The notes below the pieces were generated by a model. The model saw only the letters and a program-made list of their open reading frames with translations. It was not told the DNA's origin and did no database searches. The translations under genes and the position numbers were made by a program. From Promethearchaeota archaeon Loki_b32 (GTDB lineage Archaea > Asgardarchaeota > Lokiarchaeia > Sigyniarchaeales > SOKP01), in the NCBI GenBank assembly GCA_005223125.1, contig NJBH01000033.1, forward strand, positions 1 through 41,480: a stretch of DNA of 41,480 bases. Reading direction: 5' to 3'. Shown piece by piece: positions 2,502-31,941 of this stretch (position 1 is its first letter; every line of letters begins with the position of its first letter).

Positions 2502-3401
2502 TCAGAGATTAAAAGCTTCTAATGCTTTTTTAGCTACAATATCTCCCCATTCTTGAACAAAATGTCCCGCTTCCTTAATTCTTAAAGGTTTTGGACATCC
2601 CTTAATATAAGTCCTTAAAATACGCATGACCGATGGTCCTAATACAGGATCTTGCATCCCAACTGCCATAAAAGTTTCACCGGACCAATCATTCTGAAAC
2701 CAGGCTCTAGCCCGTTGTGAAATCTTTGCTCCAGGGGCATCAGGATGATCAGGTACCATGTTTGGAAATCTTCGAACTCCTGCCTTGTATTTAATATCTG
2801 GAAAAGGAGCATTATAGGCTGTTTTCTCATCCTCTGTTAAATGAGGACATTGTCGTGCTAATAACCGTCCTGGTTCAATATCTGGATGACTATTATTCCA
2901 ATCGCGCCAAAATATGAATCCTTTTGAAAGTGGAACATCACCTACCCCTAACCAAGTATTCATTAATAAAAGTCTAGAAAATCTATTTGGCATATCCATA
3001 GGTAATGTAAGCCCAAGTAAACCTCCCCAATCTTGACAAACGAGTGTGATATTATTAAGATCAAGGCGTTTTATAAATTCTAATAGAGAATTTCGGTGAA
3101 AATCAAAGGTATATACTTGTTCTTCATTAGGTTTATCAGACTTGCCAAATCCAAAAAAATCTGGAGCAATTATATGATACCCGGCATTTAAAAAAATAGG
3201 AATCATTTTACGATACAAATAACTCCATGTAGGCTGTCCATGTAGACATAAAAATACTTCATTAGAATCTTTTGGTCCTTCATCAATGTAATGCATTCTT
3301 AAATTTTCATACCCATTAAGATCATCAATGTAATGAGGTTCATATGGAAAGTTAGGAAGTTTCTCAAATCTATCATCTGGAGTTCTTAAAAATTCTATAA
3401 T
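2502..3401 (-). CDS. Haloalkane dehalogenase (alpha/beta hydrolase); true start probably ATT 3401 or ATA 3398
   Basis: LHGQPTWSYLYR, QDWGG nucleophile, AGHFVQE; the conserved N-terminus EFLRTPDDRFEKLPNFPYEPHY lies upstream of the called ATG at 3296. Confidence 0.88.
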   Translation of the reverse strand: MIEFLRTPDDRFEKLPNFPYEPHYIDDLNGYENLRMHYIDEGPKDSNEVFLCLHGQPTWSYLYRKMIPIFLNAGYHIIAPDFFGFGKSDKPNEEQVYTFDFHRNSLLEFIKRLDLNNITLVCQDWGGLLGLTLPMDMPNRFSRLLLMNTWLGVGDVPLSKGFIFWRDWNNSHPDIEPGRLLARQCPHLTEDEKTAYNAPFPDIKYKAGVRRFPNMVPDHPDAPGAKISQRARAWFQNDWSGETFMAVGMQDPVLGPSVMRILRTYIKGCPKPLRIKEAGHFVQEWGDIVAKKALEAFNL

Positions 3402-8995: not shown

Positions 8996-9847
8996 TTATG
9001 CTGCAACAAATAATCTACCGTTGGAACTATTGGAAATTTCACCAGTTTTTTTATCAATTTTAGAATGATTCTTCTCAACTGAATGATCGCCACTATATTC
9101 AGTAAATTTTCCTTTGATAATATCACCGTTCATTAATTCGATTTCTTCTACTTCACCCAATTTCTTATATGAAGGAAGGATTCTCGCTACTTTACCTTTA
9201 ACAACAATGGTTCCACGTACTTGATCTGCTCCAATACACCTGTCACAGTCCCCTTCAACGATAATAGTACCTCCGTGACTGTGAATACCCAAGAAAGAAC
9301 CTGCTGCACCACAAATTAGCGTAGGAAATCGTTTTGCAGGTTTCGAACCATTGACCCATGTTAAGGCTTCATCACCTATCTTACCCTTCACTTTTATTAA
9401 ACCATTTTGCATTCCTTTCCAATTTCCTCTATAAGCAGCACCAACATAATGTCCTGCATCTCCAGTAATTTCTAATTCACCACCTTTTAACATAGCACCA
9501 GCCCAATCATCAGCACTTCCATTAACTAGTATTTTTCCTCCAGACATATTATTTCCTACGTGCATTCCTACATTGTCATTTATTATTATTTCTCCACCAC
9601 TCATTTTTTCTCCGATTCTTTTGACATTTGAAAGATTTCCATCGACTATAATTTTAATCTCATTTAATTCTCCTCCTTCACCAGTAACATCGAAAAAGTC
9701 TCCTATTGTTTTTTCTTCATTTCCATGATATACAGTTAATTTTTTTATATCTGCTGCTGATTTTCCTGCAAATGCATCTGGTGTTATAGTGTCAGCTTCT
9801 AACGGAAATTCATATTCTTTTTTTAATTTTAATTTGATTTCAGCCAT
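8996..9847 (-). CDS. fwdC: Formylmethanofuran dehydrogenase subunit C
   Basis: PLEAD.ITPD, GXGXG repeats (IG..MSGG, AYRG.WKGM); operon context. Confidence 0.92.
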   Translation of the reverse strand: MAEIKLKLKKEYEFPLEADTITPDAFAGKSAADIKKLTVYHGNEEKTIGDFFDVTGEGGELNEIKIIVDGNLSNVKRIGEKMSGGEIIINDNVGMHVGNNMSGGKILVNGSADDWAGAMLKGGELEITGDAGHYVGAAYRGNWKGMQNGLIKVKGKIGDEALTWVNGSKPAKRFPTLICGAAGSFLGIHSHGGTIIVEGDCDRCIGADQVRGTIVVKGKVARILPSYKKLGEVEEIELMNGDIIKGKFTEYSGDHSVEKNHSKIDKKTGEISNSSNGRLFVAA

Positions 9848-9851
9848 TTTT

Positions 9852-11180
9852 TTATTCTCCCTTTTTCTTTTTAACTGCTTCTATTAATTTTTCTAATATT
9901 TCTTTATCAGTTAGGCATTCACCTGGTGCCTCTTTCACTTTTCTTAATCGTAGAGGAACACTATCCATACGATAGGCAGTTCCCTCACACTCAATTCCTG
10001 CTATAGCAGGTGGTAAAATAATATCAGCGTTTACAGATGTAGGTGTATGATGAGGTTCAATGACTATTAAAGGATATTTGAACATATTTTTCACGGATGC
10101 TGCAGGAAAATTACTTGCAGGATCAGAAGCTACAATTAGAGATGCATCAATCTCATCTCTCATCAAAACATCAACAGAAGAGAATTCTCCTGGATTATAA
10201 CGAGGATATCCTCTTGAGAAATCTATAGAATAAGAATATCCTGTTTGCCATGAGAAAACTTGATTTGCCCCAGCAACATTATAATGGCCTCGCATAGGAG
10301 TTAATAAAAATTTAGTGTGATCATTCAATTCCCGTACGAGGCATATAGCAGCATCTATATTTCGATGGTGTGATAAAGTTTGTGTTAACCCCATACCGAA
10401 AAATATAACTCCAAAATTACAGGATTTCATAGTTTCTACTAGTTCTTTAACTTTTTCTATTGGAACACCCGAAATTTCGTCTGCATCTATTTCTACTCCT
10501 CTTAAGATTGCTCTGATGGCATTTATTAATTCATAATCTTCACTAGGATTTATTTGAACATGTATATCAGCAATTTGGGCTGTATGTGTGTTCCTAGGAT
10601 CAACAACCACTATAAACCGATCATTTCTACCATCTTTCCTAAAATATCCACGAATAAAATCACTATACCTAGAAAGATGTCTAGGATGAGCATGTACGGG
10701 ATTTGAACCCCAAAATATTATAAGATCTGCTCTATTTTTATATTCACCTAAAGTAGAAGTAGGAGCACCAACATCTTGAATAGCTAATAACGAGGGACCA
10801 TGACATACTGAAGCTGTATTATCTAATATACTTCCTAAAATTTCAGCTAATTCTACTCCTTTACCTTGAGCTTCACACTCAGTACTGGAAAATCCATAAA
10901 GTAGTGGTCTTTTAGCTTTTATCAAAATATTAGCTGCTTTATCAATTGCTTCATCCCAAGAGACTTCCTTAAATGACCCTTTTTCTTTTATGAGTGGTTT
11001 GTCATACCGATGGTCACTGGGATTTGAAGCAAAATACTTTTTGGTGCCTATTTGACAACCATTTCGTACTTCTATGACTTTTTCTTCTTTTATATCAATA
11101 TCCACTTCGAGATCATCACAAAGGGTTCCACAAAAAGGACAAATTACATCTGTTACTGTTCTAATTTTTTTAGCTACCAT
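9852..11180 (-). CDS. fwdB: Formylmethanofuran dehydrogenase subunit B (Cys form)
   Basis: CPFCGTLCDD, DNTASVCHGP, WGSNPVHAHPRH, PMRGHYNV, GTAYRMD. Confidence 0.95.
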   Translation of the reverse strand: MVAKKIRTVTDVICPFCGTLCDDLEVDIDIKEEKVIEVRNGCQIGTKKYFASNPSDHRYDKPLIKEKGSFKEVSWDEAIDKAANILIKAKRPLLYGFSSTECEAQGKGVELAEILGSILDNTASVCHGPSLLAIQDVGAPTSTLGEYKNRADLIIFWGSNPVHAHPRHLSRYSDFIRGYFRKDGRNDRFIVVVDPRNTHTAQIADIHVQINPSEDYELINAIRAILRGVEIDADEISGVPIEKVKELVETMKSCNFGVIFFGMGLTQTLSHHRNIDAAICLVRELNDHTKFLLTPMRGHYNVAGANQVFSWQTGYSYSIDFSRGYPRYNPGEFSSVDVLMRDEIDASLIVASDPASNFPAASVKNMFKYPLIVIEPHHTPTSVNADIILPPAIAGIECEGTAYRMDSVPLRLRKVKEAPGECLTDKEILEKLIEAVKKKKGE

Positions 11181-11182
11181 TT

Positions 11183-11578
11183 CTATGCCTCCTTTAATAA
11201 ACTAATTAAACCTACTGCATCTAAAACTTTACCACTTTGTATTACTTCTACACCAGCTTTCATTCCTTTATAAGTAGGCGTTCCACATGCTTGAGAATCA
11301 GGATTTACCACTTGGTTTGCCCAAGGCCCCATTGGTATAAATATTATACCTGGATGAGGTCCTTCTTCAGAAATTGTAGAATAAACAATAACTTCTCCAT
11401 GATCCGTGATTACTTTAACTGGCGTTCCAACAAGACAATCTAATTTTTTAAAATCCTCGCTATCAAATGCACAGATTCCTGCAGCTCTAACATTCTCTTT
11501 TGTGTTTTTACCACCTTCAAGTGCAACTCCTTGATTAATTGTACGACAAGTTATTAAAATTAAATTATTCAAACTCAT
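11183..11578 (-). CDS. fwdD: Formylmethanofuran dehydrogenase subunit D
   Basis: ITCRTINQG, FIPMGPWAN, GTPTYKG. Confidence 0.93.
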   Translation of the reverse strand: MSLNNLILITCRTINQGVALEGGKNTKENVRAAGICAFDSEDFKKLDCLVGTPVKVITDHGEVIVYSTISEEGPHPGIIFIPMGPWANQVVNPDSQACGTPTYKGMKAGVEVIQSGKVLDAVGLISLLKEA

Positions 11579-12300
11579 TCTTCTTTTTCCTCCTTTTCAC
11601 TCCACCTTAATGTTTTTAATCTCACCAAAAGAGGTTCCCAGAATAGCTCACTAAATTCTCCAGATGTTTTCACATCAGTTATTTTTAACTTTACAGCTCC
11701 TGTAGGACATCCATTATCACAAGAACCGCAAGAGATACATTTTTCAGGGTCTACAACGACATTTGGGACGGTTTCCCACCCTTTATCTGATTTTTCAGGA
11801 ACAGATATAGCTCCAGAAGGACACACTTCATAGCAGGTTTGACATCCACCAGGGCATTCTTCATCAACAATGCTAATTTCTCCATCAGTATATTGTTTAA
11901 CAACCCTTTCAATCCCATCATAGCTAGTAATTTTTTTTGCTTCAAATTCTAGCTTGGGTACAACATTTTCTTTTACTATCTGGATGTCAGCTAATTCAAT
12001 CACTTCACCATCTTTTTTTAAGGTTAAAGCACTAAAAGGACACATATACACACAAGTTCCGCAGAAGACACATGCTTCTGGGTCATATATTTCCGGTATA
12101 ATATCTTCTAGTTTAGGAAATCTACGTGAAGTTCCTACTGGACCACGAGAAATAGCATCCTTAGGACAGACTCTAGCACATGTTCCACAGCCTATACATT
12201 TAGTTTTATCCAGTATTAATTCTAAACTTTCAGTTAAGAACTGGACTTTTACATGTTCAATCTCTTTACTTATTGATCTTGATATTTTTGGAAATGAAAT
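11575..12300 (-). CDS. fwdF: FwdF-like polyferredoxin, 4 x [4Fe-4S], 241 aa; apparent ATT start
   Basis: The frame is open from ATT at 12300, preceded by an in-frame TAG and GAGGTG RBS; motifs CIGCGTC..VCP, CVFCGTC..MCP, CPGGCQTC..VCP, CISCGSC..GCP; the ORF track captures only the C-terminal 158 aa. Confidence 0.85.
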   Translation of the reverse strand: MSFPKISRSISKEIEHVKVQFLTESLELILDKTKCIGCGTCARVCPKDAISRGPVGTSRRFPKLEDIIPEIYDPEACVFCGTCVYMCPFSALTLKKDGEVIELADIQIVKENVVPKLEFEAKKITSYDGIERVVKQYTDGEISIVDEECPGGCQTCYEVCPSGAISVPEKSDKGWETVPNVVVDPEKCISCGSCDNGCPTGAVKLKITDVKTSGEFSELFWEPLLVRLKTLRWSEKEEKEE

Positions 12301-12313
12301 TTTCTACACCTCA

Positions 12314-12568
12314 TTAAGATTCTAATAATTCTAATTTAATAGCACTTACAGGGCAAAATTTAATACATACTCCACATCCGTCACAATTATGGGTTCGTCC
12401 CTCTGTAAATATATCATAAGCCATACCATTTTTTACTAAAATTACAGCATTCTCTTGTGTTAAATAACCCATCTCTTTTAATTGATTAAAATTTATAGGA
12501 CAAGAAGTTACACAGATATTACATCCTATACAAGTATTTTTATTTATTTTTAATCGATAAATCTGCAT
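12314..12568 (-). CDS. fwdG: FwdG-like 2x[4Fe-4S] ferredoxin
   Basis: 84 aa, CIGCNIC..SCP and CDGCGVC..FCP; first gene of the fwd operon. Confidence 0.8.
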   Translation of the reverse strand: MQIYRLKINKNTCIGCNICVTSCPINFNQLKEMGYLTQENAVILVKNGMAYDIFTEGRTHNCDGCGVCIKFCPVSAIKLELLES

Positions 12569-15403: not shown

Positions 15404-15664
15404 ATGGTTTTCAAAGATATTTTTCAACTTTATAATATTGGTAAAGAATTAGGATTATCTCGAAAAGAAATCAATAGCGTTCTGTTATTTAAAAATCGGT
15501 ATCCGTTAGTCATCGCTTTAATGTTGATTGTAATTCTCTCGGTTCTTGCAATTCTCTTTTGGAATGTAGCTTTAATTTTATATGCAAAATCAACTGAACC
15601 AGTCTATCCACGTGGGACTTTATATTCTAGTATTAGTTTAAAAGATTTTAGAGATAAAAAATGA
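15404..15664 (+). CDS. Small single-TM protein (86 aa), unknown function
   Basis: GGTGG RBS 6 nt before ATG; ATGA overlap with the next gene; one long hydrophobic segment. Confidence 0.75.
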   Translation: MVFKDIFQLYNIGKELGLSRKEINSVLLFKNRYPLVIALMLIVILSVLAILFWNVALILYAKSTEPVYPRGTLYSSISLKDFRDKK

Positions 15665-18047: not shown

Positions 18048-18581
18048 TTAAAATTTTAAAATTTTAGGCTCTTTCCATTCTTCTCTAAGAATATTGAAAA
18101 GTGAAAGATCTCTCCATTCTCCTCTCATAAATATTATTTTGCGTAATACCCCTTCTTTTTTAAATCCGGTTTTTTCAAGAACTCTCTGAGAAGCAATATT
18201 TCTAGTATCTGTTCTTGCTTGTATCCGTACAATATCTTTTGAGAGAAACAGGAAAACTACAAACAATTTGACCACTTCTGTACAATAACCTTTCTTACGT
18301 TCAGATGGGATTAAAGTGAAGCCAATTTCCAATAGGTTTGATCCTAATGATTTACCTATAGAGTAGGTAATATTTCCAATTTTAGTTCCATCTTTTTTCT
18401 CAATAAAAAAAGATGTAGATTCATCAGGTCTTTCATTGTAACCTTTTTCGAGATCATCTTTTGAATATTGTTCTAATGGATAATACTCATCACGAAAATA
18501 AGGGTTATTAATCTATTCATAGTAAAGGGGAATATCTTATTTTTCTGGACGTCGTAAATTAATATTAATTCCTTCAAGCAT
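18048..18581 (-). pseudogene. RimJ/RimL-family GNAT pseudogene with two in-frame stops
   Basis: ATG 18581: MLEGININLRRPEK*(TAA)DIPLYYE*(TAG)INNP... continuing in frame into EIGF...NIASQRVLEKTGFKKEG. Confidence 0.85.
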
Positions 18582-30546: not shown

Positions 30547-31941
30547 ATTACTCAACTACAAACAATTAAGTATGCGAAATATGAAAGAAAATTAAACTCC
30601 TTTGAAAGGAGATTTTTTAGGTCTCCTAATCAGACTATCTCTATAGTCGCTAGACTAAAAGGCAATATTTCGGAAGATGATTTAAAAGGTGCGTTATATA
30701 AAGTAAGACAGCAGCACCCGTTATTAGGAGTCCGAATTTACGTGGATGAAAACGGCGAACCCTGGTATACAAATGAAAAAGTTCCTGAAAATCCGTTAAA
30801 GGTAGTTCAACGAACATCAGATGGAGATTGGAATCGAGAACTCTTGAATGACTATAAAATACGTTTTAAATTATCAACAGGTCCATTAGCTCGCTTTATA
30901 TTATTGCAATCACCTGAGATTTCTGAAGTTCTCATCATTTGTCATCATGTAATATGTGATGGAACTTCTTTGGCTATATTAGCTCGTGATCTCCTTTTGC
31001 ATGTTGGTAATTCTGATCGAAAAGTACAAGAGATGGCAGAGCCCCCTTTAGCAACTCCAGATAATTTTCCAATAGATATAAAAATTGGAAAAGCCATAAG
31101 GTTCGCAATTAAAAAAATGAACGATTTATGGCAAAAGAAAAAATTAATCTTTGACGAAGAGGATGAAGATAACATCTTTAGAGCATTTTGGGACAACTAT
31201 AATTTTAAAATCATCTCAGTGGAATTAAGTGAAGAAGAAACATCAAATCTTGTTGAAAACTGTAGGCAACACGGAATAACTGTGAATTCAGCTCTTAATA
31301 CAGCTTTTCTAGGAGCACGTAATTCTATCCGAGGACCCTTTAAAGGAGGAAAACGAAATATTATGGTTCCTGTTAACACGCGAAACCACTATAAAAATCC
31401 TATAGGTGAACACGTTGGAGTTTATGTTTCAGGATTTGAGCTGAAATTCTCATATAATCCAAAAAAGGGTTTTTGGGAGAATGCTAAAATTTACAATGAT
31501 AAAGCAAAAGAAAATCTCTACATTAATAAAATATTTGAATTTGCTGCGATCACAGACCTCGTTGATCAATCTATGATAGATGCCCGTCAATTTACGTTTT
31601 TTGGTAATCTTGTTCCCTCAAACTTCAGTAGATATGAAAAAATTCATGCTTACTGTAATGATGAGAAGAATATAGCAAATAAGAGGGCAAAAAAGCAAAT
31701 TCCTAAATTACCTGTCATGGCTATTACCAATCTTGGTCTTTTGGATTATCCTTCAAAATATGGATCATTGGAGTTAGATCGTTTTATATTTGTGACTTCA
31801 GGCACTCCATATATCGAGCTTGTAATCCCTGTTGTCACGGTTGCTGGAAAACTAAGCTTTACAATTAATTACCTAGAAGAAATTACTGACACTGAAACAA
31901 TGGAAAAAATCAATATTGAAGTTTTAAAATATCTAAGCTGA
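30547..31941 (+). CDS. Condensation-domain/alcohol acetyltransferase-like acyltransferase; apparent ATT start
   Basis: HHVICDG motif; the conserved N-terminal RKLNSFERR...VARLKG...QHPLL lies upstream of the called GTG 30742; frame opens at ATT 30547 after AGGTGG. Confidence 0.82.
   Translation: MTQLQTIKYAKYERKLNSFERRFFRSPNQTISIVARLKGNISEDDLKGALYKVRQQHPLLGVRIYVDENGEPWYTNEKVPENPLKVVQRTSDGDWNRELLNDYKIRFKLSTGPLARFILLQSPEISEVLIICHHVICDGTSLAILARDLLLHVGNSDRKVQEMAEPPLATPDNFPIDIKIGKAIRFAIKKMNDLWQKKKLIFDEEDEDNIFRAFWDNYNFKIISVELSEEETSNLVENCRQHGITVNSALNTAFLGARNSIRGPFKGGKRNIMVPVNTRNHYKNPIGEHVGVYVSGFELKFSYNPKKGFWENAKIYNDKAKENLYINKIFEFAAITDLVDQSMIDARQFTFFGNLVPSNFSRYEKIHAYCNDEKNIANKRAKKQIPKLPVMAITNLGLLDYPSKYGSLELDRFIFVTSGTPYIELVIPVVTVAGKLSFTINYLEEITDTETMEKINIEVLKYLS

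Follow-up and report, generated by a model that had tools for sequence, protein, structure and literature searches.

The fwdF-like gene on the minus strand of a 41,480-nucleotide stretch of the Promethearchaeota archaeon Loki_b32 genome (hereafter the window) very probably starts at an ATT codon at position 12300. The stop-to-stop frame of the gene covers 11575-12303 (242 codons), and from the ATT, which lies two codons past an in-frame TAG, it extends for 241 codons (11575-12300). On the minus strand, the sequence reads GAGGTG (12312-12307), TAG (12306-12304, in frame), AAA, ATT (12300-12298), TCA TTT CCA. An earlier note on this DNA had read it in the same way and had regarded the TAG as a block to upstream extension. 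This description was borne out, and no ATG, GTG, or TTG is present in frame upstream of the conserved N-terminus. The features of this region are as follows.

8996-9847, minus strand: fwdC (TIGR03122, 251 bits)
9852-11180, minus strand: fwdB (TIGR03129, 617 bits)
11183-11578, minus strand: fwdD-like gene, the ATG of which overlaps the fwdF stop (ATGA)
11575-12300, minus strand: fwdF-like polyferredoxin coding sequence read from the ATT, 241 aa with four [4Fe-4S] motifs (half-size FwdF)
11707-11739, minus strand: [4Fe-4S] motif 4 (C188-C198)
11821-11856, minus strand: [4Fe-4S] motif 3 (C149-C160)
12040-12072, minus strand: [4Fe-4S] motif 2 (C77-C87), within which the first canonical start falls
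12049-12051, minus strand: GTG, first canonical start (codon 84), at which the public protein record of 158 aa begins
12166-12198, minus strand: [4Fe-4S] motif 1 (C35-C45), lost with a start at GTG 12051
12270-12314, minus strand: out-of-frame ATG overlapping the fwdG stop, with a 14-codon mini-ORF; not conserved and probably a by-product
12298-12300, minus strand: ATT, putative start codon in the ATG column of the orthologs
12304-12306, minus strand: in-frame TAG, which ends any upstream extension of the frame and keeps the GTG within the Shine-Dalgarno (SD) motif from serving as a start
12307-12312, minus strand: SD motif GAGGTG, 6 nt before the ATT, pairing with the same-genus 16S 3′ end GAUCACCUCC
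12314-12568, minus strand: 84-aa 2×[4Fe-4S] ferredoxin, fwdG-like by position, with its stop 13 nt before the ATT

The Cys residues of the 241-aa protein are arranged in four motifs (35/38/41/45, 77/80/83/87, 149/153/156/160, and 188/191/194/198). The first ATG, GTG, or TTG in the frame is GTG 12051, which is codon 84 from the ATT and, as the earlier note had pointed out, is located inside the second motif (between Cys77 and Cys87). A start at this position would drop motif 1 and three Cys residues of motif 2, so that the first dicluster domain would lose both of its clusters. The ATT is placed at a distance of d = 8 from the SD motif, which is the genome-wide modal distance of ATG genes (SD matches of at least 5 nt), and the ribosome-binding-site spacings previously listed for comparison genes at 15404, 36798, and 2383 are correct. 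Because the 16S rRNA gene is unassembled in the source genome, the anti-SD sequence was taken from a genome of the same genus (G023), and its 3′ end pairs with GAGGTG over six bases. An Rfam scan of the window gave no matches.

Residues 3-99 and 135-238 of the protein align to residues 5-100 and 267-373, respectively, of the solved FwdF 7bkb_K (E = 6e-42). Because the FPK motif near its N-terminus is aligned with the N-terminal end of 7bkb_K, the start is placed at the ATT. Homology to the solved protein at both ends, in the N- and C-terminal dicluster domains, and the location among fwdD, fwdB, and fwdC are features shared with FwdF/FmdF of methanogens (7bkb_K, 5t5i_F; NF042909). However, the methanogen proteins have 349-388 aa, whereas the present one has 241 aa and four motifs, which is well below the size of a full-size FwdF (about 350 aa), and reaches 111 bits in the NCBIfam FwdF model NF042909, for which the cut-off is 375. 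Full-size FwdF holds eight [4Fe-4S] clusters. Judged from the alignment, the protein corresponds to a methanogen FwdF in which the middle domains are missing and the first dicluster domain is followed directly by the last one. The earlier note described an intact gene in an intact operon. The frame is indeed intact, but FwdF is half-size and the operon, fwdG-F-D-B-C (8996-12568, minus strand), does not contain fwdA. A fwdA gene is present on another contig (C35:8330-10018, 777 bits), together with a weaker paralog elsewhere in the genome (C70:20207-21841, 312 bits).

The fwdF-like gene is present in 40 of the 54 genomes of the genus. Among the 39 same-genus orthologs with the start in view, the start column holds ATG in 27, TTG in one, and ATT in 11. 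Five further genomes, at 89-91% identity, also have ATT, which brings the total to 16. The earlier note had proposed tabulating this codon in relatives, on the premise that ATG in all close relatives would speak for an error or a private mutation. Instead, the ATT is shared and occupies the same column as ATG, and its presence in 16 independently assembled genomes argues against an assembly error. Orthologs at 64-74% identity are canonical in all 18 readable cases (17 ATG and one GTG), indicating that the ATT is derived. The dN/dS ratio over residues 2-83 is 0.044 in the ATT genomes (dS 1.3, near saturation) versus 0.056 in the ATG genomes, and the eight Cys residues within residues 2-90 are conserved in the ATT genomes. 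The gene is therefore not a pseudogene. All near-cognate copies have ATT as codon 1, whereas all 12 of the 12 all-Ile columns of the ATT genomes mix ATT, ATA, and ATC, and codon 1 is thus not an ordinary Ile codon. The start column, the selection on the N-terminal region, and the FwdF alignment together give strong comparative support to the claim that AUU initiation yields MSFPK...

The history of the ATT within the genus appears to be complex. A single clean ATT clade was rejected (AU test, p = 5e-25; 4-5 changes on the tree), and the present distribution may go back to a single early gain followed by several reversions to ATG, to repeated gains, or to recombination. The tree of fwdG and fwdF conflicts with that of fwdD and fwdB for three genomes (G062, G034, and G076; loci L031, L003, and L033), which points to recombination inside the fwd operon between species. 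The trees were calculated without G069, in which the start lies past the contig end, without the fragments in G015 and G017, and without orthologs of less than 50% identity.

The SD motif differs between the two groups of orthologs. AGGTG is found six bases upstream of the start in all 11 ATT copies and in none of the 28 ATG/TTG copies, most of which have GAGGTA. The computed median energy of the SD duplex is about −9.5 kcal/mol in the ATT copies and −7.0 kcal/mol in the ATG/TTG copies. Since related genomes share labels, the test was based on independent pairs, of which there are only four; all four agree (p = 0.125), a number too small for significance. The co-variation is therefore suggestive of a stronger SD compensating for the weaker AUU codon. 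The additional G of the SD motif also creates an in-frame GTG, which may have been an intermediate step in the change from ATG to ATT. The gap between the fwdG stop and the fwdF start is 13 nt here and 10 nt in most orthologs, below the roughly 20 nt that we took as the limit for coupling. In Haloferax, a gap of 13-14 nt leaves 40-60% reinitiation (PMC10666635). Because the same gap occurs in the ATG copies, coupling leaves the ATT unexplained.

The ATT could be a deliberate device that lowers FwdF relative to the other subunits, as the earlier note suggested in terms of tuning subunit stoichiometry, or a gene-specific regulatory switch. Such a role would fit the retention of ATT across saturated silent-site divergence without any exchange for ATA or ATC, and the canonical starts of fwdG, fwdD, and fwdB wherever they are readable among the same-genus genomes. 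Nevertheless, we consider it unlikely, because 28 of the 39 congeners run an operon of the same gene order from ATG or TTG and because each ATT is accompanied by a stronger SD, which looks like compensation. Local RNA folding around the start does not differ between ATT and ATG copies (p = 0.18), and unrelated genes also use ATT (described below). FwdF of methanogens is present at a 1:1 ratio with the other Fwd subunits, which likewise counts against down-tuning.

Still less probable is a start at the ATG at 12314 followed by a −1 frameshift or slippage on the A-run, or a start at the GTG of the SD motif followed by read-through of the TAG. The ATGA/TAATG overlaps have a classic coupling geometry (PMC10666635), and the GTG is open in frame in three of the 11 ATT genomes. 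In two further ATT genomes (loci L131 and L134), an extra A in the spacer joins the ATG at the fwdG stop to the reading frame of fwdF, and MRCRKISFPK is the beginning of the public proteins. These genomes, with either an open GTG or an in-frame upstream ATG, may not need the ATT. As a general route, however, frameshifting was rejected: in G026 and G075, a stop ends the mini-ORF after 2-3 codons, the ATG itself is missing in G075 and G066, and there is no conserved slippery heptamer. Read-through was rejected as well, because three different stops (TAG, TAA, and TGA) at two positions block the GTG in eight of the 11 ATT genomes. Neither route would account for codon 1, since an internal Ile codon would not remain ATT in 16 of 16 genomes.

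Initiation at near-cognate codons does not appear to be restricted to fwdF. We searched the source genome for ATT, ATA, and ATC codons at d = 7-9 from an SD motif, in long frames from which a canonical codon is absent over 15 codons or more; this limitation was applied because codons beside real ATG starts confounded a broader enrichment test. Such codons were in frame in 37 of 87 cases, compared with 13 of 174 off frame (p = 5e-11) and with 14 of 89 in frame at a control spacing of d = 13-15 (p = 1e-4). A near-cognate ATT, ATA, or ATC is the sole SD-led start in 72 of 3339 long frames, and ATG, TTG, or GTG is SD-led in 439. After correction for the chance rate given by the control, we estimate that some 40-50 genes, about 1-1.5%, have near-cognate starts. 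Two of the candidates are located in the window.

2502-3401, minus strand: alpha/beta hydrolase with a haloalkane-dehalogenase-like N-terminus, ATT at 3401; second ATT gene of the window
30547-31941, plus strand: condensation/AATase-domain protein, ATT at 30547 behind AGGTGG; third ATT gene of the window

The start column of the hydrolase holds ATG in most orthologs and ATA in the closest one (G001). As judged by eye, GTGAT precedes the start in the ATT/ATA copies, and weaker motifs do so in most ATG copies. The ATT of the condensation-domain protein is common to an ortholog of 80% identity (G007). A further frame of the window (18048-18512, minus strand) is open for 60 codons before its first canonical start, with an ATT directly after the stop and no clear SD motif.

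The source genome encodes both the initiator tRNA and the fidelity factor of initiation. The initiator tRNA gene (C48:102824) is standard, with A1, a GGG/CCC anticodon stem, and a CAU anticodon, and it is split by an intron; besides this intron in the anticodon loop, there is a second insertion near the T arm. ARAGORN detected no tRNA-Met in the source genome, and the initiator was located by a pattern search. The elongator tRNA-Met (C56:3912) and a tRNA-Ile (C61:82706) are apparently intron-split too, and tRNA genes for the anticodons GAT and TGC stand in tandem at C68:23145-23294 (minus strand), the GAT body of which is unlike the GAT tRNA on C61. The fidelity factor aIF1 (SUI1) is encoded at C48:127310-127600 (minus strand) and has both the zinc knuckle, which has been described for most archaeal aIF1 (PMC6237735), and the basic loop. 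We found aIF1 in 48 of the 54 genus genomes.

A variant of the code, in which a changed initiator tRNA or a lost fidelity factor would make AUH codons cognate starts, is therefore highly improbable. ATT, ATA, and ATC are all among the candidate starts, as such a variant would lead one to expect. However, the initiator has the standard CAU anticodon, aIF1 has been retained, and SD-led starts are still mostly ATG, TTG, or GTG (439 versus 72). A pattern search of the incomplete tRNA set found no GGG-stem tRNA with a GAU or AAU anticodon, or with CAU but without an intron. Start-codon selection thus does appear to be relaxed across the genome and the family, as the earlier note had considered for this lineage, but not because parts of the machinery were lost.

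The aIF1 gene itself lacks a canonical start upstream of the zinc knuckle, and the codon at the start position is ATT in all 28 readable loci of the genus. Its SD spacing (d = 12) is longer than the modal value. Other genera of the same family have ATT or ATC in 18 of 21 loci, again with no canonical start before the zinc knuckle, and outside the family, aIF1 starts with ATG, TTG, or GTG in 13 of 18 readable loci. The closed genomes G050 and G055 have TTG and ATG, respectively. Sulfolobus aIF1 discriminates against AUU (PMC4705826), and the same paper, citing Butler 1987, mentions that bacterial infC (IF3) is autoregulated via its AUU start. Taken together, these two properties make negative feedback the simplest mechanism for a permissive stringency, in which AUU-initiated aIF1 would hold stringency at a permissive level. 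The canonical starts outside the family and the long SD spacing of aIF1 count against such feedback.

From these comparisons, we infer initiation at AUU 12300, compensation of its rate by the SD, coupling to fwdG, and feedback through aIF1. The 30S subunit would be placed on the fwdF mRNA by the duplex between GAGGTG and the anti-SD, and ribosomes finishing fwdG 13 nt upstream possibly help to feed the start by reinitiation. The ordinary initiator Met-tRNA (CAU) would accept AUU despite the third-position mismatch, giving M-S-F-P-K... and an electron relay of 241 aa with four clusters that serves Fwd. An additional G-C pair between SD and anti-SD would make up for the weaker codon, so that ATT with GAGGTG and ATG with GAGGTA may be roughly equivalent solutions, swapped several times in the genus. 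The permissive set-point most plausibly results from aIF1 being AUU-initiated itself and keeping its own level low, in the manner of bacterial IF3. We consider this explanation as a whole, consisting of SD-positioned near-cognate AUU initiation, compensation by a stronger SD, and a permissive set-point of the lineage, to be probable. More tentatively, and with less than even confidence, we propose that one family of Promethearchaeia (Lokiarchaeia) has a homeostat of start-codon stringency, in which the invariant-AUU aIF1 sets its own level and thereby co-regulates SD-strengthened AUU, AUA, and AUC genes, including fwdF. If true, it would be an archaeal counterpart that connects the autoregulation of IF3 in bacteria (AUU) with that of eIF1 in eukaryotes (poor context).

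Several known systems resemble the present one in part. The likeness to E. coli infC lies in a near-cognate AUU behind an SD motif and in an AUU start of the fidelity factor's own gene, here that of aIF1. The pcnB gene of E. coli also starts with AUU. Unlike infC and pcnB, the present case involves archaeal aIF1/aIF2 in place of IF3 and a putative feedback, and the genes concerned are unrelated and number in the tens, not just a few. Eukaryotic eIF1, a homolog of aIF1, is autoregulated via a poor start context (Ivanov 2010, as cited in PMC6237735). The aIF1 of this lineage would be similar in that an inefficient start restricts its own production, but the eukaryotic start is an AUG in a bad context, whereas the aIF1 codon itself is AUU. 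Ribosome profiling of Haloferax volcanii assigned about 30% of putative alternative start sites to near-cognate codons (PMC7261190), indicating that archaeal ribosomes can stop at such codons. In contrast to those sites, which are alternative and were set aside as possible false positives, the near-cognate codons here are the only usable starts of conserved genes.

In reviews, the start codons given for archaea are limited to AUG, GUG, and UUG (PMC7531240). One ATT start, called "rare" in the Methods, was inferred for the Asgard gene atubA of Kariarchaeaceae (Heimdallarchaeia) (PMC13394414). Similar to fwdF, an ATT with a plausible ribosome-binding site restores a structurally needed N-terminus there, and the GenBank record is truncated; however, atubA is a single gene from another Asgard class, presented without a comparative series, SD co-variation, or a genome-wide pattern. 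The fwdF-like gene has the properties of an AUU-initiated gene in the start column of its orthologs, the constraint on the codon, and the canonical SD spacing. Neither AUU starts across a lineage nor aIF1 autoregulation in archaea came up in the literature searched, the coverage of which excluded most subscription papers. The natural pair of ATT with GAGGTG and ATG with GAGGTA, together with the AUU-initiated aIF1, would allow a direct test of start-codon stringency in the closest relatives of eukaryotes.

The NCBI record of the fwdF-like gene is the 158-aa form, which lacks half of the Fe-S clusters, and one ATT ortholog (MGB5910074.1) is annotated at full length (241 aa, MSFPK), indicating that pipelines treat ATT starts inconsistently. 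This record would fit the 158-aa protein from GTG 12051 as the true product, but this reading, like an assembly error, a private mutation, or a pseudogene, has been made barely credible by conservation of the ATT in 16 genomes and of the N-terminal Cys residues under strong purifying selection, and by the shift of the first canonical codon between codons 17 and 84 among the ATT genomes. For this single gene, the practical outcome is a corrected start. More generally, if core genes of Asgard archaea have a conserved AUU as their sole start, the annotation of such genomes must change. Gene finders cut near-cognate-start proteins short, which probably concerns tens of genes in each genome; missed AUU starts would also bias the claim that Lokiarchaea rarely have SD motifs. 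Within the window, the default calls of the hydrolase (2502-3401) and of the condensation-domain protein (GTG 30742) are 35 and 65 codons short, respectively. Other candidates from the scan of the source genome are an ATC start of a protein whose N-terminus resembles ribosomal protein uL16 (C36:106901-107533, minus strand), an ATT start of a rubredoxin/rubrerythrin-like protein (C44:112718-113248, plus strand), an ACG start (C47:7766-8323, minus strand), and a CTG start (C46:1163-2131, minus strand).
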